Below are positions 7,373 through 45,837 of a DNA stretch of 64,000 nucleotides, one piece after another; the first letter of the stretch is position 1, and each line of letters opens with the position of its first letter. The translations under genes and the position numbers were made by a program. Source of the stretch: an uncultured Acidimicrobiia bacterium (GTDB taxonomy: Bacteria; Actinomycetota; Acidimicrobiia; Spongiisociales; UBA5794); assembly GCA_963792405.1 (NCBI GenBank), contig CAWBVU010000006.1, forward strand, positions 410,325-474,324. The letters are read 5' to 3'. A model generated the notes under the pieces. That model was not told where the DNA came from. It did not search any database and was given only the letters and a program-made list of their open reading frames with translations.

Positions 7373-8295
7373 GTGGAGGGCTCCCCGCCGTCGGTCAGCG
7401 CCAGGAACACGTCCTCGAGGGTCGGGCGGTCAGCGCGCAGGTCCATCGGTTCAATGCCGTGTCCGACGAGGGCCGCACCGACGTGGGCGAGGACGGGGCC
7501 ATCGCCCCGCACCTCGTACCGGAGGCCATCGGTGTCCACCGCGGTGACATGCGGAACGGCATCGAGCCACGGAAGGGGGTCCCCGGCGTGGGTGAACCGC
7601 ACGCGAACGCCGCCGCCGAACTCGTCGACGAGCGCACCCGGGGTCCCGGCTGCGACGACCAATCCGTGATCGATCACCACCAGCCGGTCGCACAGCCGTT
7701 CGGCCTCATCCATGAAGTGCGTGACGAGGACGACGGTCGTGCCCCTGTCCCGCACGCGTCGTATGAGGTCCCAGGCGACCCTGCGGGACGCCGGGTCGAG
7801 TCCCGTCGTCATCTCATCGAGGAACACGACATCAGGCTCGTTCGCAAGCGCCAGTGCGACGAACAAGCGCTGCTGTTGGCCTCCGGAGAGGTTGGCGAAG
7901 CGGGTGTTCGCCTTGTCGACGAGCCCCCAGTCCGAAAGGAGGGTGGCCACGTCCGGTCCACGCTCGCTCATGGACCCGATCAGGTCGAGCGCCTCCCACA
8001 CCTTCATCCGCTCCGGCAGCGCGGACTCCTGGAGCTGCGAGCCCACCCTCCGCCGGAGGTCCCGGGCATGGCGGCGCGGGTCGTATCCCAACACGGACAC
8101 CGTTCCCCCATCGGCGTGGCGGAGTCCCTGGAGGCACTCGACGGTGGTCGTCTTCCCTGCCCCATTGGGGCCGAGGATCCCGAAGATCTCGCCCCTCCCC
8201 ACCGCGAACGAGACGTCGGACACGGCGGTGACACCGCCGTAGGCCTTCCTGAGGTGCTCGACGGACACGACCGCGTCGGTGGTGGTCACCCGCAC
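7369..8295 (-). CDS. ABC transporter ATP-binding protein
   Basis: Walker A GPNGAGKTT, signature LSGGQQQR, Walker B VVFLDEMT. Confidence 0.9.
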   Translation of the reverse strand: MRVTTTDAVVSVEHLRKAYGGVTAVSDVSFAVGRGEIFGILGPNGAGKTTTVECLQGLRHADGGTVSVLGYDPRRHARDLRRRVGSQLQESALPERMKVWEALDLIGSMSERGPDVATLLSDWGLVDKANTRFANLSGGQQQRLFVALALANEPDVVFLDEMTTGLDPASRRVAWDLIRRVRDRGTTVVLVTHFMDEAERLCDRLVVIDHGLVVAAGTPGALVDEFGGGVRVRFTHAGDPLPWLDAVPHVTAVDTDGLRYEVRGDGPVLAHVGAALVGHGIEPMDLRADRPTLEDVFLALTDGGEPST

Positions 8296-38876: not shown

Positions 38877-39641
38877 ATGAAGATCGTCCGCATCGACGCC
38901 GACAACGACGACATCACCTACGGCACCGTCGAGCCGGACGGCATCCGCCTCTACCACGGATCGCCCTTCTTCCAATGGGAGCGATCCGAGACCGTGCTCC
39001 CCATCACGCAGGTCAAGCTCCTCGCCCCTGTCATCCCCACGAAGGTGGTCGCCGTCGGGAAGAACTACGTCGACCACGCCGCAGAGATGGACTCCGCGGT
39101 CCCCGAGAGCCCGATCATCTTCCTGAAGCCTCCCACCAGTGTCATCGGGCCGCTGTCGCCGATCCGGCTTCCCCCGGAGTCCAGGGAGGTCCACCACGAG
39201 GGCGAGCTTGCCGTGGTGATGGGGAAGGTGGCCAGGCACGTCGCTGCCGAGGACGCCAGCCGCTACATCCTCGGCTACACGATCGCCAACGACGTCACGG
39301 CACGCGACCTCCAACGCGCCGACGGCCAATGGACGAGGGCGAAGGGATTCGACACCTTCTGCCCTCTCGGTCCCGCGATCGACACGGAGTTCGACCCGAC
39401 CGAGCCGAACAGCCTCACGACGAGGGTCGACGACGAGCTGCGCCAGGACGGTTCGACGGCCGACATGGTGTTCGGCGTCGCGGACCTCGTCGCCTTCGTG
39501 TCCTCCGTCATGACCCTCCTACCGGGTGACGTCATCCTCACCGGCACGCCGTCGGGGGTGGGGCCGATCCGCGAGGGCGACCGTGTCGAGGTGGAGATCG
39601 AGGGCCTCGGGGTGCTGATGAACCCCGTGGTGTCGGCGTGA
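38877..39641 (+). CDS. fumarylacetoacetate hydrolase (FAH) family protein
   Basis: FAH-fold motifs GKNYVDHAAE, HEGELAVV, GDVILTGTPSGVG. Confidence 0.85.
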   Translation: MKIVRIDADNDDITYGTVEPDGIRLYHGSPFFQWERSETVLPITQVKLLAPVIPTKVVAVGKNYVDHAAEMDSAVPESPIIFLKPPTSVIGPLSPIRLPPESREVHHEGELAVVMGKVARHVAAEDASRYILGYTIANDVTARDLQRADGQWTRAKGFDTFCPLGPAIDTEFDPTEPNSLTTRVDDELRQDGSTADMVFGVADLVAFVSSVMTLLPGDVILTGTPSGVGPIREGDRVEVEIEGLGVLMNPVVSA

Positions 39642-41086
39642 GCGTCAGGGTCCGGTTCGCCCCGTCACCGACCGGCTACCTGCACGTCGGCTCCGCACGC
39701 ACCGCCTTGTACAACTACCTGTTCGCCAACGCCAACGGCGGCCAGTTCATCCTCCGCTCGGACGACACGGACGAGGCGAGGTCGACCGAGGAGTACCAGC
39801 AGGACATCCTCGATCACCTCAGGTGGCTCGGGCTCGAGTGGGACGAGGGATTCGCCAAGGGCGGACCACACGGCACCTACCGCCAGTCCGACCGATTCGA
39901 GCGGTATGCCGAGGTCGCCCACGGCCTCGTGCGCGACGGCAAGGCGTACTACTCCTTCGCGACGCCGGACCAGCTCGAGGGGTTCAGGCGGCAGGCGCAC
40001 ACGGAAGGCACATCGCCCGCCTACGACGGGTCGCTCGAACCGACGAGGGACCAGGTGTCACGGAGGCTTGCGGACGGTGAGACCGCCGTCGTCCGCTTCA
40101 GGGTGCCGAGGCCGGGCGAGACGGTCTTCGAGGACGTCGTCAGGGGTGAGATGCGCTTCGACCATGCGCAGGTCGACGACTTCGTGATCCTGCGATCGGA
40201 CAACACGCCGACCTACCACCTCGCGTCGACCGTCGACGACGTCGACTACGGGATCACCCATGTGATCAGGGGAGAGGACCTGCTGCCCTCCACCCCCAAA
40301 CACATCCTCCTCACTCAGGCCATGGACGCCCCGCCTGCCACCTACGCCCACCTGTCGCTGCTGATGGGCCCGGACGGCAAGAAGCTCTCGAAACGCCACG
40401 GGGACACGGCGATGAGCGCGTACCGCGAGGCCGGATACCTGCCGGAGGCGATGGACAACTACCTCGCCCTGCTCGGGTGGAACGTCGGCGAGGACGAAGA
40501 CGTGGTGTCCCTCGACGAGATGGTGCGGCGTTTCGACCTCGGCGCGGTCTCGCGCAATCCCGCCGTGTTCGACACGAGGAAGCTCGAGTGGATGAACGGC
40601 GTGTACGTCAGGGCGCTACGGGACGACGTGTTCGTCACGATGACCCTCCCCATCGTCGAGGAGGCGCTTGGGCGCACCCTCGACGATGCCGAACGTGCAC
40701 GGTTCGCGACCATCGCCCCCCTCGTGAAGGAGCGGACGAAGCTCCTCCCTGAGGTCGCCGACCAGGTCCGTTTCCTCTTCGCCGCCGTCGAGTCCTACGA
40801 CGAGGACTCCTGGCGGAAGGTGATGGAGACCGAGGAGGCGCCCGTCGCCCTCGACGGTGCAGCCTCCTCCCTTGGGGACCTCGACGTGTGGTCCACGACA
40901 TCGATCGATGACGCCCTCAGGGCGATGCTCGAGGCGACGGGACTGTCCGCGAGGAAGGGCCTGCAGCCGATCCGGGTGGCGGTGTCCGGCTCGACGGTCA
41001 GCCCACCGCTGTTCGAGTCGCTCGAGGCGCTCGGCAGGGACGAGACCCTCGCCCGGATCGCCTCGGCGAGGGCGGAGCTCGGCTGA
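39638..41086 (+). CDS. gltX: glutamate--tRNA ligase
   Basis: Class I HIGH motif (PSPTGYLHVGSAR) and KLSKR (KMSKS) motif; GTGA overlap with upstream gene. Confidence 0.95.
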   Translation: MSVRVRFAPSPTGYLHVGSARTALYNYLFANANGGQFILRSDDTDEARSTEEYQQDILDHLRWLGLEWDEGFAKGGPHGTYRQSDRFERYAEVAHGLVRDGKAYYSFATPDQLEGFRRQAHTEGTSPAYDGSLEPTRDQVSRRLADGETAVVRFRVPRPGETVFEDVVRGEMRFDHAQVDDFVILRSDNTPTYHLASTVDDVDYGITHVIRGEDLLPSTPKHILLTQAMDAPPATYAHLSLLMGPDGKKLSKRHGDTAMSAYREAGYLPEAMDNYLALLGWNVGEDEDVVSLDEMVRRFDLGAVSRNPAVFDTRKLEWMNGVYVRALRDDVFVTMTLPIVEEALGRTLDDAERARFATIAPLVKERTKLLPEVADQVRFLFAAVESYDEDSWRKVMETEEAPVALDGAASSLGDLDVWSTTSIDDALRAMLEATGLSARKGLQPIRVAVSGSTVSPPLFESLEALGRDETLARIASARAELG

Positions 41087-41087
41087 C

Positions 41088-41468
41088 ATGCCACCCGCCG
41101 ACGCCCAGATCACCTTCCTGCCGTGCACCGACCTGTCGAGGAGCAGGGCGTTCTACGAGGGCATCCTCGGGCTCGACCTCGTCGTCGACCAGGGCAGCTG
41201 CCTGATCTTCCGTGTCGTCGAAGGCGCCTTCGTGGGGCTCTGCGAGCACCTCGACCCGATCCGGGGGAGGAGCGTGATCCTCACCATCGTCACCGACGAC
41301 GTCGATGCGTGGTGTCGCAGGATCACCGACCATGGTGGGCTCGTGGAGTCGGGACCGGAGCACAACGACCGCTACGGCATCTACCACGCCTTCACGAGGG
41401 ACCCGGACGGCCACTACGTCGAGATCCAGCGATTCGACGACCCCTCCTGGTCGTCCCCCATCGCGTGA
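41088..41468 (+). CDS. VOC (glyoxalase/bleomycin-resistance fold) family protein
   Basis: 126-aa protein with VOC betaalphabetabetabeta repeats; starts 2 nt after gltX stop. Confidence 0.7.
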   Translation: MPPADAQITFLPCTDLSRSRAFYEGILGLDLVVDQGSCLIFRVVEGAFVGLCEHLDPIRGRSVILTIVTDDVDAWCRRITDHGGLVESGPEHNDRYGIYHAFTRDPDGHYVEIQRFDDPSWSSPIA

Positions 41469-41532
41469 CGCGAGCGATTCAGGGGCCCTCGTTGCCATTA
41501 CGGGTCGGTCCCACGTATCCTTGCCGACGCCT

Positions 41533-41604
41533 TCGGGGGTGGTGTAATTGGCAACACGCCGGGTTCTGGTCCCGTTATTGAGGGTTCGAGTCCTTCCCCC
41601 CGAG
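41533..41604 (+). tRNA. tRNA-Gln (anticodon CTG)
   Basis: Cloverleaf: acceptor TCGGGGG/CCCCCGA, D-arm GTGT-AATTGGCA-ACAC, anticodon loop TTCTGGT, T-arm GAGGG-TTCGAGT-CCTTC, discriminator G; CCA not encoded. Confidence 0.8.
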
Positions 41605-41628
41605 CCGGCAGATACACTCTGCCCACAC

Positions 41629-41701
41629 GGCCCCGTCGTCTAGCGGCCTAGGACGCCGCCCTCTCAAGGCGGTAGCGCCGGTTCAAATCCGGTCGGGGCT
41701 A
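41629..41701 (+). tRNA. tRNA-Glu (anticodon CTC)
   Basis: GTCTAGCGGCCTAGGAC D-arm characteristic of tRNA-Glu; anticodon arm CCGCC-CTCTCAA-GGCGG; T-arm GCCGG-TTCAAAT-CCGGT; acceptor GGCCCCG/CGGGGCT. Confidence 0.85.
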
Positions 41702-41947
41702 CGAAGAGACCTCTCGCATCTCACGCGGGGGGTTTCTTTGCGTTACCCCCTTGAGAGTGCGGCGTGCCGCTTCTGCTCTCCCTTTGGCAAGGCGGTAGCG
41801 CCGGTTCACATCCGGTCGGGGCTACGAAGAGACCTCTCGCATCTCACGCGGGGGGTTTCTTTGCGTTACCCCCTTGAGAGTGCGGCGTGCCGCTTCTGCT
41901 CTCCCTTTGGCAAGGCGGTAGCGCCGGTTCACATCCGGTCGGGGCTA
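41702..41947 (+). repeat. two tandem 123-nt direct repeats, each ending in a copy of the tRNA-Glu 3' half (anticodon-loop to 3' end, T-loop TTCACAT instead of TTCAAAT)
   Basis: Near-identical units at about 41702-41824 and 41825-41947; each carries CAAGGCGGTAGCGCCGGTTCACATCCGGTCGGGGCT but no 5' acceptor/D-arm, so they are not complete tRNAs. Confidence 0.8.
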
Positions 41948-41952
41948 CAAGC

Positions 41953-41981
41953 CAGAAACCCCTGTACCGCAGGGGTTTCTG
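41953..41981 (+). terminator. perfect 12-bp stem / 5-nt loop hairpin (CAGAAACCCCTG-TACCG-CAGGGGTTTCTG), probable intrinsic terminator of the tRNA cluster
   Basis: Inverted repeat seen directly in sequence; no U-tract (common in high-GC actinobacteria). Confidence 0.55.
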
Positions 41982-42217
41982 CGCGTTCCGAGCCCGATGC
42001 GTGACGGGGGTGGCGCGGGCGGACGATGCCGATTTCGGCGGTTTGGTGGTGGGATGGTGCGAAACGGGACGTCGCGCCCGTATCATCGGCTCAGCTGCTT
42101 CGGCGGCCTTCCCCTTGCTCGTTGTCCTACGACTCTGATTCTCGGGTCGGTTCCGGACATCTCATCAGGTGCGGCACACCGTGTGCGCGCACATCCCTGA
42201 CAGCAAAGGAAGCTGCC

Positions 42218-42463
42218 ATGAACATCTTCGTCGGCAATTTGCCATTTACCGCCTCCGAGTCGGATCTCCGAGGCCTGTTCGCCGAATACGGCGATATCGA
42301 ATCCGTCGCGATCATCTCCGACCGCGACACCGGACGCTCACGTGGGTTCGGCTTCGTCGAGCTCGCCGCTGATGCCCGCGCCAATGACGCGATCCGCGAC
42401 CTGGACGGCACCAGCCTCGATGGTCGCAACATCAACGTCAACCAGGCCAAGCCACGTTCGTGA
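42218..42463 (+). CDS. RRM-domain (RNP-1) RNA-binding protein
   Basis: RNP-2 IFVGNL and RNP-1 RGFGFVE motifs; 81 aa; AAGGAAG RBS; long (over 200 nt) upstream untranslated region. Confidence 0.8.
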   Translation: MNIFVGNLPFTASESDLRGLFAEYGDIESVAIISDRDTGRSRGFGFVELAADARANDAIRDLDGTSLDGRNINVNQAKPRS

Positions 42464-42639
42464 CGACCGACCAAGGCCGGGACGACGCCCCGTCGTCGGA
42501 GCTGTCCACCTGCACTCGCTGTGGGATGGAGCTTCGGACGACAGAGCTGTGGGCCCACACGGCCCACGCTCACAACATCGACCTCGACGCCAAGAAGCCG
42601 AAGAGCAAGGGCAAGGGACGCGATCGGGGAGGACGTTGA
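42460..42639 (+). CDS. small C2H2-like zinc-finger protein with Lys/Arg-rich tail (59 aa)
   Basis: GTG start overlapping the rbp stop (GTGA); C-x2-C-x11-H-x2-H-x-H pattern then KKPKSKGKGRDRGGR; coding status inferred from coupling and codon usage. Confidence 0.45.
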   Translation: MTTDQGRDDAPSSELSTCTRCGMELRTTELWAHTAHAHNIDLDAKKPKSKGKGRDRGGR

Positions 42640-42960: not shown

Positions 42961-43065
42961 GCCCTCTCTGCGTCGCTTCGCTCCGCGTCTCTCCCGCGGG
43001 GAGAGACGGAGCAGGGTGCCCTCTCTGCGTCGCTGCGCTCCGCGTCTCTCCCGCGGGGAGAGACG
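42961..43065 (+). repeat. two tandem about 57-nt units each containing a 10-bp hairpin CGTCTCTCCC-GCG-GGGAGAGACG
   Basis: Units GCCCTCTCTGCGTCGCT(T/G)CGCTCCGCGTCTCTCCCGCGGGGAGAGACG at about 42961-43008 and 43018-43065; an additional 22-nt direct repeat GTGCGGTGCGGGAGGCGTCTCG at about 42843 and 42913. Confidence 0.6.
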
Positions 43066-43275
43066 ACGAACGGCGGTCGCTCCTCGCGTCCGTTCGATCC
43101 TCGGTCGTGGCGAACGATCTTCATCTGCGCCCCACAGCGGCGTGTCGCCCGCGTAGCCTCGGGTTGACGGCCCTGTGTCGGCCGCTGTCCACACACAGGC
43201 CCGGGCATGCTCGGTGCCTCCGTGCGGACACGGGTCGGCGGGGCACGCGAAGAAACGGGAGAGGAAAGGGGAACC

Positions 43276-45837
43276 ATGTCCCTCCAGCGAATCCATCGAA
43301 CGCGGCGCGTTCGAGTCGTCCTCACGGTCGTGGCGGTGCTCGCCGCACTGCTCGTCCTGGCTGCGCCGTCGGCGCAGGCAGAGCCGCCGGACGGCTATGA
43401 CACCGCCACGTTCACCCTGACCATCCTGCACAACAACGACGGCGAGTCGCAGCTCGTGAATGCAGGTAGCGGCATCGAGACGTACGGGGGCGCCGCGCGG
43501 TTCGATGCGCTCGTCGACGCCCGCCGGACGGCCCAGGCGGGCCTCACCGACGGGGTGCTGATGGTGTCGTCCGGTGACAACTTCCTCGCGGGACCGGAGT
43601 TCAATCTGGGCCTCGAGAATTTCCTCGCGACGGGAGAGCCGTTCTACGACACCGTGGCCATGGCGCTGATCGGCTACGACGCCGTCGCACTCGGCAACCA
43701 CGACTTCGACTTCGGTCCCGAGGTCCTCGCGGACTTCCTCACCGGGTACCAGACGCCGCCGACGGGCTACGTGGGACCCTATGTCACGCCGCCCTACGTC
43801 TCGGCGAACCTGGACTTCGTGGGTGAGCCGACGCTCAACGCGCTCGTCGATCCCCTCGGACCGATCACGACGGCGGTCGACCCGCTGAGGCCGATCGCCA
43901 AGAGCACGATCGTGAGCTCGGGAGGCGTCGATATCGGGTTCATCGGCCTCGAGACCCCGAACCTCGCCTCCATCTCGAGCCCGAGGAACGTGGCGATCGA
44001 CAGGGCGATCGTGAGCGTCGTCCAGGCGCAGGTGACCGCACTCGACGGCCTCGGCGTCGACCACATCGTGCTGTTGAGCCACCTCCAGGACATCGACAAC
44101 GAGAAGAGCCTGATCGCCCAGGTCACGGGCCTCGACGTGGTCGTCGCAGGTGGCGGTGACGAGCTGCTCGCCAATGCCGGCGACACGCTCATCCCCGGCG
44201 ACACCGCGGTGGACACGTATCCCGTGTGGCAGCAGGACGCAGCAGACGTCTACGTCCCGATCGTCACCACGTCCGGTGAGTACAAGTACCTCGGACAGCT
44301 CGAGGTTGGCTTCGACGCCGCCGGTGCGGTCGTGGGGGTCGGGCCGAACAGCGGCCCGCTCGTCGTGTCGACCGCTGCGGGCAACGACGCCGACATGCAG
44401 ACGTGGGTCGTCGATCCCGTCGTCGCAGGACTGGACGTCCTCGCCTCCACCAAGGTGGCGACGAGCCAGGTCGACCTCGACGGCCGTCGCGACTCGGTGC
44501 GCTTCATGGAGACGAATGAGGGCAACCTGATCGCCGACAGCCAGCTCTGGCAGGCGAAGAAGATCGCTGCCGACTTCGGCGCGAAGGCGCCGGACGTCGC
44601 CCTCCAGAACGGCGGCGGCATCAGGAACAACACCATCATCTCGGCCGGTGACCTCACCGTGCTCGACACGTTCGACATGGTGCCGTTCCCGAACTTCGTC
44701 ACAGTCGTCGAGGACGTGCCGATCGCCCAGTTCAAGGAGATCCTCGAGAACGCGGTCTCGGCCGTGGATGGGCTCTCCGGCGGCACCGGGCGGTTCGCAC
44801 AGGTCGCGGGCTTCTCCATGACCTACAACCCGTCGGCGCAGGCGCAGGTCGTCAATGACGCGGGGTTCGTGCTGAAGCCCGGCATGCGCATCCAGGACGT
44901 CAAGCTCGACGACGGTACGGTGCTCGTCAAGGACGGCGCGCTCATGCCGGCCACGAAGCCGAGCGTGAGCATCGCGATCGTCGACTTCCTCGCTCGCGGC
45001 GGTGATCAGTATCCGTTCAGGAACGCACCCTTCAAGGTGCTCGGTGTTTCGTACCAGCAGGCACTCCAGAACTACCTGGAGATGCTCGGCACGGTGACCG
45101 CGGCGGACTACCCGGAGGGTGGCGAGGGCAGGATCACCCTGTCCGGTGCCCAGGTCGGGCTCGTTGACACGAGCACCGGCGTGTGGACGCTCGGCGGTGA
45201 CGCCTTCTACTACGGCAACCCCGGCGATGTGCCGTTCGTGGGTGACTGGGACTGCAATGGCACGTCGACACCGGGCCTGTACCGGCAATCGGACGGATTC
45301 GCCTACCTGAGGAACTCGAACACACAGGGCACAGCGGACCTGACGTTCTTCTTCGGGAACCCGGGCGACGTGCCGATCGCCGGCGACTTCGACGGTGACG
45401 GATGTGACACGCTGTCGATCTATCGCCCGTCGAACCAGACGTTCTACATCATCAACGAGCTCGGAAAGGACGGTGGGGGCCTCGGCGCCGCCGACTTCAG
45501 CTTCGTGTTCGGTGATCCGGGAGATGAGCCCTTCGTCGGCGATCTCGACGGTGACGGGATCGACGAGGTCGCCCTTCACCGTGACACGACCGGTCTGGTC
45601 TACTACCGGACCACGCTGACGACCGGGGCGGCGAACGTCTCGTTCATCTGGGGCGACCCCGCGGACACGGTGTTCGCAGGTGACTGGAACGGCGACGGCA
45701 CCGACACGGTCGGATTGTTGCGGGCATCGAACTCCACGTTCTACTACCGCAACACCAACACCCAGGGCGTGGCGGACGGCAGCAGCGTGCTCACCGGGGG
45801 CGCCACCGGCGTTCCGGTGGTGGGGCGGTTCGGCTGA
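43276..45837 (+). CDS. secreted bifunctional 5'-nucleotidase / 2',3'-cyclic-nucleotide phosphodiesterase (UshA-like) with C-terminal FG-GAP/VCBS-like repeats
   Basis: Signal peptide; metallophosphoesterase motifs ILHNNDGES, GNHDFDFG; 5'-nucleotidase C-terminal domain; about 250-aa C-terminal region with 5 repeats of FxxGNPGDxPxxGDWDGDGxDTxGLYR. Confidence 0.85.
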   Translation: MSLQRIHRTRRVRVVLTVVAVLAALLVLAAPSAQAEPPDGYDTATFTLTILHNNDGESQLVNAGSGIETYGGAARFDALVDARRTAQAGLTDGVLMVSSGDNFLAGPEFNLGLENFLATGEPFYDTVAMALIGYDAVALGNHDFDFGPEVLADFLTGYQTPPTGYVGPYVTPPYVSANLDFVGEPTLNALVDPLGPITTAVDPLRPIAKSTIVSSGGVDIGFIGLETPNLASISSPRNVAIDRAIVSVVQAQVTALDGLGVDHIVLLSHLQDIDNEKSLIAQVTGLDVVVAGGGDELLANAGDTLIPGDTAVDTYPVWQQDAADVYVPIVTTSGEYKYLGQLEVGFDAAGAVVGVGPNSGPLVVSTAAGNDADMQTWVVDPVVAGLDVLASTKVATSQVDLDGRRDSVRFMETNEGNLIADSQLWQAKKIAADFGAKAPDVALQNGGGIRNNTIISAGDLTVLDTFDMVPFPNFVTVVEDVPIAQFKEILENAVSAVDGLSGGTGRFAQVAGFSMTYNPSAQAQVVNDAGFVLKPGMRIQDVKLDDGTVLVKDGALMPATKPSVSIAIVDFLARGGDQYPFRNAPFKVLGVSYQQALQNYLEMLGTVTAADYPEGGEGRITLSGAQVGLVDTSTGVWTLGGDAFYYGNPGDVPFVGDWDCNGTSTPGLYRQSDGFAYLRNSNTQGTADLTFFFGNPGDVPIAGDFDGDGCDTLSIYRPSNQTFYIINELGKDGGGLGAADFSFVFGDPGDEPFVGDLDGDGIDEVALHRDTTGLVYYRTTLTTGAANVSFIWGDPADTVFAGDWNGDGTDTVGLLRASNSTFYYRNTNTQGVADGSSVLTGGATGVPVVGRFG

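Follow-up and report, generated by a model that had tools for sequence, protein, structure and literature searches.

Organization of the tRNA-Glu locus and its tandem array

The 64-kb stretch of DNA analysed here, from an uncultured Acidimicrobiia bacterium (contig CAWBVU010000006.1) and hereafter called the window, contains a tRNA-Gln(CTG)/tRNA-Glu(CTC) gene pair followed by a short tandem array of two 123-nt units. The array is rearranged tRNA-Glu DNA and not a set of extra genes: each unit carries a hairpin, an inverted piece of the tRNA, a linker and a direct copy of the tRNA 3′ half. All coordinates are positions in the window, tRNA positions follow the numbering within tRNA-Glu, and L001–L024 are labels of comparison loci, most of them metagenome bins or contigs.

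The DNA of the window is high in G+C, and its nearest relatives are bins and contigs of Acidimicrobiia. Upstream of the tRNA pair lie gltX (39638–41086) and a gene of the VOC/glyoxalase family ending at 41468. A consensus scan found one promoter-like site (TTGCCA-18-TATCCT) ahead of the pair, against 0.0 expected from shuffled sequences (Table 1). From its ARAGORN call and full Rfam cloverleaf, tRNA-Glu(CTC) is judged to be a functional gene; CCA is not encoded in it. The direct repeat has its first copy in positions 36–74 of this gene, and positions 25–50 are the left arm of an inverted repeat.

Table 1. Features of the tRNA-Gln/tRNA-Glu locus and the array behind it
Feature	Position	Strand	Basis
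Promoter-like site TTGCCA-18-TATCCT	41492–41521	+	consensus scan against shuffles
tRNA-Gln(CTG) gene	41533–41606	+	ARAGORN; Rfam tRNA 54.5 bits
tRNA-Glu(CTC) gene	41629–41702	+	ARAGORN; Rfam tRNA 59.7 bits, full cloverleaf
T1 hairpin, unit 1 (16-bp stem, 7-nt loop ATCTCAC, U-rich 3′ arm and tail)	41702–41740	+	RNAfold
Inverted copy of tRNA-Glu 14–50 with 5-nt deletion, unit 1	41740–41771	-	inverted-repeat search and local alignment
Pyrimidine-rich linker of 16 nt ending in GG, unit 1	41772–41787	+	alignment of units
Direct copy 2 of tRNA-Glu C36–A73 (plus C), with A58C	41788–41825	+	repeat search, pattern scan
T1 hairpin, unit 2 (same as in unit 1)	41825–41863	+	unit identity, RNAfold of T1
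Inverted copy of tRNA-Glu 14–50, unit 2	41863–41894	-	inverted-repeat search
Linker, unit 2	41895–41910	+	unit identity
Direct copy 3 of tRNA-Glu C36–A73 (plus C), with A58C	41911–41948	+	repeat search, pattern scan
T0 hairpin	41951–41983	+	perfect 12-bp inverted repeat; RNAfold

Tandem Repeats Finder reported a repeat at 41665–41948 with a period of 123, 2.3 copies, 99% matches and a score of 561. Its tRNA-like part is a 38-nt block, CAAGGCGGTAGCGCCGGTTCA[A/C]ATCCGGTCGGGGCTAC, which corresponds to tRNA-Glu from C36 to A73 plus a C and occurs three times in direct order, first at 41665–41702 inside the gene and then as the two downstream copies of Table 1. The recurrence of the tRNA-Glu 3′ half at a 123-nt period, proposed in the initial annotation, which was made from the letters alone, is confirmed by this call and by the block matches, and the A-to-C change in the T loop that it ascribed to both downstream copies is A58C. 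The 23-nt core pattern matched three times in the 64 kb, against 0.00 expected from shuffles, and the window contains no other copy of the 38-nt block. The two units (41703–41825 and 41826–41948) are identical at 123/123 positions; the last expansion in this genome must therefore have been very recent.

Neither downstream copy was called a tRNA by ARAGORN, and the Rfam tRNA model gave no match on 41703–41948 even at E <= 10. The cloverleaf and covariance check of the units that had been recommended at the outset was carried out with these two programs and gave no tRNA in the units.

Structure of the unit

Each unit is built of the T1 hairpin, an inverted tRNA segment running from position 50 to 14, the 16-nt linker and a direct tRNA segment from 36 to 74. 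Read from the gene outward, the tRNA copies follow in the order direct-inverted-direct (36–74, 50–14, 36–74), with the hairpin at the centre. The 85-nt segment between the direct copies had been described as unique; this description has to be abandoned, since the segment consists of the 16-bp hairpin T1, the reverse complement of tRNA positions 14–50 and the linker.

The stretch 41740–41765 is complementary to 41653–41678 of the tRNA at 88% over 26 nt. With a 5-nt gap the reverse-complement match spans tRNA positions 14–50 (z = 10.9 against shuffles, p < 0.0004), and 32 of the 85 spacer nucleotides are tRNA-derived. The inverted piece begins directly after T1 and ends with the GCGGC/GCCGC pair. 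It holds a conserved motif, GAGAGTGCGGCGT-GCCGCT (the hyphen marks a junction), which across units reads GAG(A)G(T/G)GCGGCGT-GCCGCT; it combines the anticodon loop and 5′ stem with the D loop, each in reversed orientation. As read from the sequence, two of the five stem pairs of the inverted anticodon arm itself are lost in the window.

The inverted piece was found in all eight lineages aligned (the window, L003, L010, L004, L007, L005, L002 and L022). When aligned with the tRNA in reverse complement, it scored z = 13.5 in L003 (25/26 matches), 11.3 in L010 (24/26), 8.2 in L004, 7.2 in L007 and 3.9–4.9 in L005, L002 and L022; it has become shorter and has diverged in L005, L002, L007 and L022. 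In direct orientation the spacers of eight lineages were unlike the tRNA 5′ half, scoring below the shuffle mean (p > 0.9). The GG at the end of the linker is invariant in ten aligned units, L022 has AG, and the rest of the linker varies between lineages.

It should be mentioned that the units of L003 and L010 bear a 57-nt insert made of two near-perfect hairpins, CCTGATCC-TTC-GGGTCAGG and GGAGTTGC-TCT-GCAACTCC. The insert (complement of 7549–7605 and 7387–7443 in L003; 4659–4715 in L010) lies between the GCGGC and GCCGC halves, at the place of the 5-nt deletion in the inverted piece of the other units.

Hairpins T1 and T0

In T1, the U-rich 3′ arm pairs with the A-rich 5′ arm, and RNAfold gave dG = -25.1 kcal/mol (z = -5.1). 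T0, located behind the last copy, is a perfect 12-bp inverted repeat (41953–41964/41970–41981) with dG = -25.6 kcal/mol (z = -5.5). The earlier statement that a perfect 12-bp hairpin closes the array stands for T0, and it has to be extended in that a terminator-like hairpin, T1, also opens every unit. A consensus terminator scan called neither T1 nor T0 because the T run is paired to A-rich sequence farther upstream. Across lineages, compensatory changes occur at 4 of 11 pairs of the T1 stem. Its covariation score was 0.239 vs. 0.151 in shuffles (0/500), and the score was lower in all slid controls.

T1 is probably the intrinsic terminator of the tRNA-Gln/tRNA-Glu operon and would end its transcription; this is the simplest reading because T1 lies directly 3′ of the working tRNA-Glu. 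In L013, a relative without units, a T0-type hairpin stands directly behind tRNA-Glu, and T0 of the window aligned with the post-tRNA sequence of this locus at 36 of 43 nt (z = 9.2). On this alignment, T0 is considered orthologous to the terminator directly behind tRNA-Glu in unit-less relatives, i.e., the ancestral terminator. T1 and T0 share the outer stem and the tail (z about 3–5). A homology of the spacer with the post-array sequence beyond the terminator was not supported, as only the outer hairpin stem and tail match (z about 3). Two T1 variants, ..CTCGCATCTCAC.. and ..CCTGCTCTCAC.., occur across lineages.

An acceptor-like stem proposed by RNAalifold (CYYTGGC/GTCGGGG) was rejected, being composed of pyrimidine/G pairs only and broken in two units. 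Heptamer repeats, (GAACCGT)n and (TTTACGG)3, follow a T1-type hairpin in L017 (4190–4267) and L005 (about 2265–2285), and the contig end of L017 falls inside them.

Occurrence of the unit in related Acidimicrobiia

Comparison loci were collected first by a scan for the 3′ block without a preceding T, in which each species was represented by a single genome; it gave five loci, all in Acidimicrobiia or Actinomycetes bins. A metagenome scan gave two more, and homologues of the neighbouring VOC protein led to further syntenic loci. Units stand behind the syntenic tRNA-Glu of at least eight related Acidimicrobiia lineages; the loci described are L003 (two units), L010 (the same as L001; one unit), L005 (three units of differing lengths), L004 (three or more, one of them split by a 1.27-kb insertion), L007 (one unit and a split unit), L002 (one unit) and L022 (one degenerate unit). 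They are absent behind tRNA-Glu in a sister clade (L011, L013, L016 and L018) and in L014. Look-ups of identical proteins, made with the RRM protein and the GluRS of the window, gave no match. The search for further units advised in the initial annotation gave no additional copy within the window, and it revealed that relatives differ in unit number, from none to three or more.

gltX and the VOC-family gene adjoin the tRNA in all loci whose sequence covers the upstream flank (L005, L007, L010 and part of L003); in L002 and L004 the upstream flank is not shown. In L022, the tRNA pair is on the strand opposite the VOC gene. In a neighbour-joining host tree built from 1540 nt of gltX and VOC, the unit-bearing lineages fall on one side and the unit-less L011, L013, L016 and L018 on the other. 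Because the coding flanks (gltX+VOC) are only 63–86% identical in pairwise comparison, the unit must either be old or have passed from lineage to lineage.

Units of the same genome are near-identical, and between genomes their non-tRNA parts differ by 10–30%. The direct copies differ from the tRNA-Glu gene at only 0–4 of 38 positions, and since this is far below the divergence elsewhere in the unit, we infer that they are homogenised with the gene by recombination or gene conversion. L003 and L010, whose flanks are 97% identical, have two and one units, respectively, which are 87–90% alike, and wholly different sequence beyond the array. A58C occurs in displaced copies of three lineages, namely the window (41809 and 41932), L005 (2128) and L007 (complement of 2101), and C50T is common to the copies of L004 and L007. 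A58C may represent the older, ancestral form of the displaced copy; alternatively, it may be relevant to the use of the site by integrases. The initial annotation had held that identical arrays throughout the family would point to a functional RNA and not to an integration scar. Such arrays recur in kind only, with copy number, unit sequence and distal flank varying.

Among three independent short-read contigs of one lineage, L019 and L021 end exactly at GGGGCTAC, the end of the 38-nt block, and L020 at ..CTCTCA, its start. These ends suggest that a repeat, or variation between strains, is present at the block boundaries there too; the longer contig L018 shows no unit.

The 1.27-kb segment of L007 (complement of about 870–2080) and L004 (about 240–1545) contains small lipoprotein and membrane open reading frames (ORFs) and is flanked by two halves of the hairpin of the unit, AACAGAGACCCACGTCCTCGAGG ... 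CGGGGGTTTCGCC. We considered it as an island between attachment (att) copies and rejected this, because the hairpin halves on either side make an insertion into the loop of the hairpin the better reading. Past the segment, the final tRNA copy is cut after TTCA.

Proposed origin of the unit

Based on these results, we favour, with moderate confidence, an ancient fold-back (template-switch) duplication of the direct-inverted-direct type at the terminator hairpin, followed by amplification through unequal crossing-over or slippage. This origin is preferred because fold-back characteristically leaves copies in direct-inverted-direct order, joined at short inverted repeats. The event would have been a single one in the ancestor of one Acidimicrobiia clade. 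The nascent strand would have folded back at the hairpin behind the tRNA, copied itself backwards and switched back to the template at another short inverted repeat, for which GCGGC (D loop, 15–19) with GCCGC (anticodon stem, 26–30) is a candidate. The third, direct copy would run on into the native terminator T0, and the palindrome would then have been trimmed by small deletions. From then on, unequal crossing-over among the direct repeats, or slippage between them, would change the number of units, and the two identical units of the window would be the most recent step of this kind.

Several features agree with such a course. The fold predicted for the tRNA and spacer amounts to a single long palindrome, interrupted and with T1 at its centre. 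The first candidate junction lies at T1 and the second beside GCGGC/GCCGC, where the linker and the 5-nt deletion blur it. Furthermore, T0 stands behind the last copy, as a fold-back with the direct copy running into native sequence would give. In the model of Kugelberg for tandem inversion duplications, fold-back is followed by copying of the nascent strand, resumption at a second inverted repeat and deletion of palindrome arms (PMC4689423). The unit shares with such duplications (Kugelberg et al. 2010; DUP-TRP/INV-DUP) the direct-inverted-direct order; its candidate junctions would lie at short inverted repeats (T1; GCGGC/GCCGC), and later asymmetric deletions and recombination between direct copies fit the model (PMC4689423). 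Unlike the known examples, which span kilobases to megabases and are recent and dosage-selected, the unit is about 120 bp long, ancient and fixed in a clade, and extra deletions are needed to derive it. Slipped-strand or unequal-crossover duplication, the former one of the three options of the initial annotation, is supported for the last step, in view of the identity of the two units at 123/123 positions and the two units of L003 vs. one in L010 between flanks of about 97% identity.

A number of observations weigh against a fold-back origin. The reverse complement of positions 74–51, predicted just behind the hairpin, is missing. The direct copy is predicted to resume at position 26, and clear identity begins at 36; on account of both discrepancies at least two secondary deletions or insertions have to be assumed. 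The model does not account for the 16-nt linker. T1 and T0, expected to be the same at the time of the event, now share about half of their bases. The T1 variants are distributed contrary to the host tree, L003 differing from L010 and L005 from L017, which suggests horizontal exchange or the sorting of mixed arrays. In addition, the direct block covers precisely the part of the tRNA between the anticodon loop and the 3′ end, the classical shape of a tyrosine-integrase att block (PMC4383910), and integrase genes or their relics adjoin the tRNA or the array in five relatives. Finally, the unit has outlived about 30% divergence of gltX+VOC, which is beyond what is expected of a neutral scar unless gene conversion and a role of the terminator explain it.

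Integrases at tRNA-Glu

tRNA-Glu is an integration hot spot, as follows from the integrases or relics in relatives together with constant upstream genes and a variable downstream order. Behind tRNA-Glu and T0, L011 has an intact tyrosine integrase (PF00589, precomputed) and an HTH_17 (Xis-like) gene. In L016 the same integrase is broken and frameshifted, in pieces. Immediately beyond the arrays, tblastn detected relics in L010/L001 (E = 3e-7) and in L003 (E = 0.007), and L002 retains 21 nt of the end of an integrase gene. In L024, tRNA-Glu(CTC) and tRNA-Glu(TTC) adjoin an element that encodes a TrwC relaxase and two such integrases. The aminotransferase, FAA-hydrolase and gltX genes upstream are kept at every locus showing them, as is the VOC gene at all but L024, and the downstream gene order differs in every lineage. 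The integrase family comprises 1397 proteins in Acidimicrobiia at E <= 1e-40, many of them truncated. Based on its match to the Int structure 6en0 (E = 3.5e-10), it is assigned to the ordinary tyrosine recombinases; integrases of actinomycete plasmids are less than 30% identical to it.

A possible, if rather doubtful, alternative to fold-back is that the unit is the shrunken remnant of an integrative element that a tyrosine integrase inserted into tRNA-Glu, its arms joined on loss of the interior into something like an 85-bp cis-mobilizable element (CIME), and that it was later duplicated by recombination between att copies. The unit might then travel with integrase elements by accretion. Such an origin would agree with the integrases and relics listed above, with the large size of the family and with the variable downstream order. 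The block from the anticodon loop to the 3′ end resembles the tRNA fragments displaced by islands, which are pervasive (PMC9897764) and for which tandem arrays of tyrosine-integrase islands at one tRNA are known (PMC4383910). CIMEs, att-flanked segments without recombination or transfer genes beside integrase elements, and their accretion are established concepts, as with ICESt1 (PMC5704250). In Dehalococcoides, ssrA is followed by many repeats of its 3′ end, which share a motif just upstream and differ from the gene by a conserved mismatch (PMC3146451); both features are seen here, the mismatch being the recurrent A58C. Two properties of the hairpin point the same way: T1 resembles the terminator beside the integrase of L011 (z = 5.3) more than T0 of the window (z = 3.2), and its variants are at odds with the host tree.

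However, integration yields direct repeats only, and the inverted tRNA piece 14–50 behind a hairpin is left unexplained by it. The two displaced fragments attributable to this integrase family (the first copy in L002 and that of tRNA-Glu(TTC) in L024) start at position 27 after TGAA, unlike the unit copies, which start at 36 after GG in ten aligned units (AG in L022). The window is devoid of an integrase of the family found in relatives, with the best E values being 0.32 in tblastn and 0.65 with the family hidden Markov model (HMM) on six-frame ORFs, which agrees with the initial annotation that had seen no integrase near the array. There is likewise no integrase between or beside the repeats and no foreign DNA between the copies in the window. 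Of the ten ORFs tested in the 11 kb downstream, eight match ordinary Pfam families, none of which belongs to mobile elements; the two without a Pfam match both overlap matched ORFs on the opposite strand. A presumed integrase relic downstream of T0 was dismissed as a 13-nt match at chance level (E = 0.55).

A parent element was not found either. In phage and plasmid collections the 362-nt region matched tRNA genes only, and IMG/VR gave no match to the C58 core, to either of two spacer segments, to the integrase or to a position-27-type fragment. Thus, no phage, plasmid or IMG/VR element with the spacer and no integrative and conjugative or integrative and mobilizable element (ICE/IME) with arms matching the unit appeared in the element, phage, plasmid and IMG/VR searches. 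The array shares with the att fragments of Islander and TIGER a direct repeat from the anticodon loop to the 3′ end and a locus that is an integrase site in relatives; it differs from them in the 85 nt between copies, the absence of integrase or cargo, the start at 36 instead of 27 and the inverted piece inside. With the definition of a CIME it agrees formally only, being att-flanked and lacking integration and transfer genes, and whereas CIMEs measure kilobases and are visibly derived from an ICE or IME, the unit has 85+38 nt and is largely tRNA-derived. The stacked scars of repeated integration envisaged in the initial annotation gain from the hot spot in relatives and lose from the rest, the copies being those of one old unit with a start at 36, not 27, and with an inverted piece. 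The integrases explain the variable distal flank and the relics in relatives, and they are not needed to make the unit.

In L024 (4070–12250), the two integrases are related and oppositely oriented, an HTH_17 gene is present, and the TrwC relaxase is interrupted by a transposase with rve domains. Its tRNA-Gln/tRNA-Glu(CTC) pair is inverted relative to gltX. The displaced tRNA-Glu(TTC) fragment is on the strand opposite its gene, which makes an inversion between the L024 elements likely. No att repeat was found at the right end of the L016 element. The TGGGACAC repeats after T0 in L002 and L011 were examined as arm-type sites and turned out to be C-terminal codons of the integrase. A gene for a PemK-family toxin (L010, 5099–5437) is located just past the integrase relic.

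Possible function of the unit

It is improbable, in our estimation, that the unit is a functional RNA or regulatory device in which read-through past T1 would produce a 26–37-nt antisense to tRNA-Glu that traps the precursor, for example for RNase III; a variant in which unit RNAs would be processed out, by analogy with E. coli rtT, is included in this estimate. In favour of such a role, the unit persists over deep divergence, and its inverted piece is near-invariant in L003 and L010. The minimum-energy fold predicted for the tRNA and spacer has no cloverleaf and replaces it with a helix of about 26 bp between tRNA positions 25–50 and the antisense piece (dG = -84.6 kcal/mol, z = -5.2 in the window; -87.9 kcal/mol, z = -8.4 in L010). 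Moreover, the analogous E. coli locus yields an annotated small RNA, RttR.

The unit itself argues against this. A consensus scan found no promoter-like site in it, a strong terminator-like hairpin opens every unit, and no Rfam family, including RtT, matched it at E <= 10 (41000–42600). The part of the unit outside T1 does not exceed shuffled sequence in stability (z = -0.8). T1 alone shows covariation; the GCGGC/GCCGC stem is invariant and so provides no evidence of this kind. The inverted piece has decayed in part, as shown by the lost stem pairs of the anticodon arm in the window and by its shortening in L005, L002, L007 and L022, and neither copy number nor distal context is conserved. An independent small-RNA gene, the second option of the initial annotation, has no support in these data: there is no promoter-like site, no Rfam family and no excess structure outside T1.

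Taken more broadly, there is little likelihood that the unit is a maintained device, be it a terminator combined with an antisense of the tRNA-Glu D and anticodon arms or a set of decoy landing sites for integrases. If the former were true, a transcript reading through T1 would fold onto the tRNA body and pair with it over about 26 bp, the precursor would be destroyed or withheld, and tRNA-Glu output would be coupled to termination efficiency. In the latter case, integrases would insert without touching the working gene, and A58C in the older copies could alter the use of the site.

Assembly and decay as explanations

There is a slight chance that the count of two units comes from a mis-assembled tandem repeat and that the true locus has one unit or more than two. 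The units are 100% identical, and reads must span 284 nt to tell them apart. In relatives, short-read contigs break exactly at repeat boundaries, and the closest relative found, L008 (a JGI metagenome contig with a VOC protein 95% identical to that of the window), breaks 7 nt after the tRNA. Against this, arrays of unlike units in the independent assemblies L003, L005 and L004 rule out collapse or expansion there: the two units of L003 have 6–7 differences and a different linker, and the three of L005 are of unequal length. The unit itself, and at least one copy of it here, is beyond doubt.

The idea that the downstream copies are former full tRNA-Glu genes with decayed 5′ halves, which draws on a unit length near that of a tRNA plus spacer and on the runs of tRNA-Glu genes carried by several Actinomycetota, has almost no probability left and is effectively refuted, as the 45–50 nt before each copy are unlike a direct tRNA 5′ half in eight lineages (p > 0.9), the tRNA-derived sequence there is inverted, and the same junction before CAAGG is common to the lineages (GG; AG in L022).

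Comparison with the E. coli tyrT/tyrV locus and significance

In anatomy, the closest known case is the tyrT/tyrV locus of E. coli. We checked it in strain MG1655, where a repeat with a 178-bp period and 3.1 copies (3.14) overlaps the 3′ end of tyrV and contains the annotated rttR and tpr. The historical description of these repeats is reportedly that of Egan and Landy in 1978, Rossi in 1981, and Bosl and Kersten in 1991. At both loci, a tRNA gene is followed by about two to three head-to-tail units, each regenerating the tRNA 3′ end. Unlike in E. coli, 38 tRNA nucleotides are regenerated here and not 19, the units have their own terminator hairpin and an inverted tRNA middle, no ORF or annotated RNA is present, and the host belongs to a different phylum. 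There is also no sequence or Rfam relationship between the two (no RtT match).

It follows that a duplicated tRNA 3′ end need not mark integration, and an inverted copy behind a hairpin points to a replication fold-back event on a 100-bp scale that became fixed and was later amplified. Units of this kind break short-read assemblies at fixed points and can be mistaken for att sites in the mapping of islands. The clade offers a natural system for studying a mini-repeat in concerted evolution next to an essential gene, the evolution of tRNA-operon terminators and the question whether integrases use pseudo-sites. If the antisense piece does act on read-through transcripts, it would represent a simple new way of policing tRNA precursors.

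Other repeats near the locus

The 22-nt spacer between tRNA-Gln and tRNA-Glu (41607–41628) holds a small hairpin, GGCAGA-TACAC-TCTGCC. The spacer was viewed in the window, L005, L007, L010, L011 and L017, and, as judged by eye alone, the hairpin appears to be kept with other stem sequences in relatives, e.g., ACGGAC..GTCCGT in L010.

Downstream, a 57-nt unit occurs in two tandem copies, 89% identical, at 42961–43074, each with the palindrome TCTCTCCCGCGGGGAGAGA. These copies sit in the gap upstream of an ORF (43207–45837) with a 5′-nucleotidase C-terminal domain. Inside this ORF, three 74-nt segments at 45328–45698 are 65–73% alike with a spacing of 141–156 nt; Pfam gave the 5′-nucleotidase domain only, and the segments code for repeats of the GDxDGDG type.

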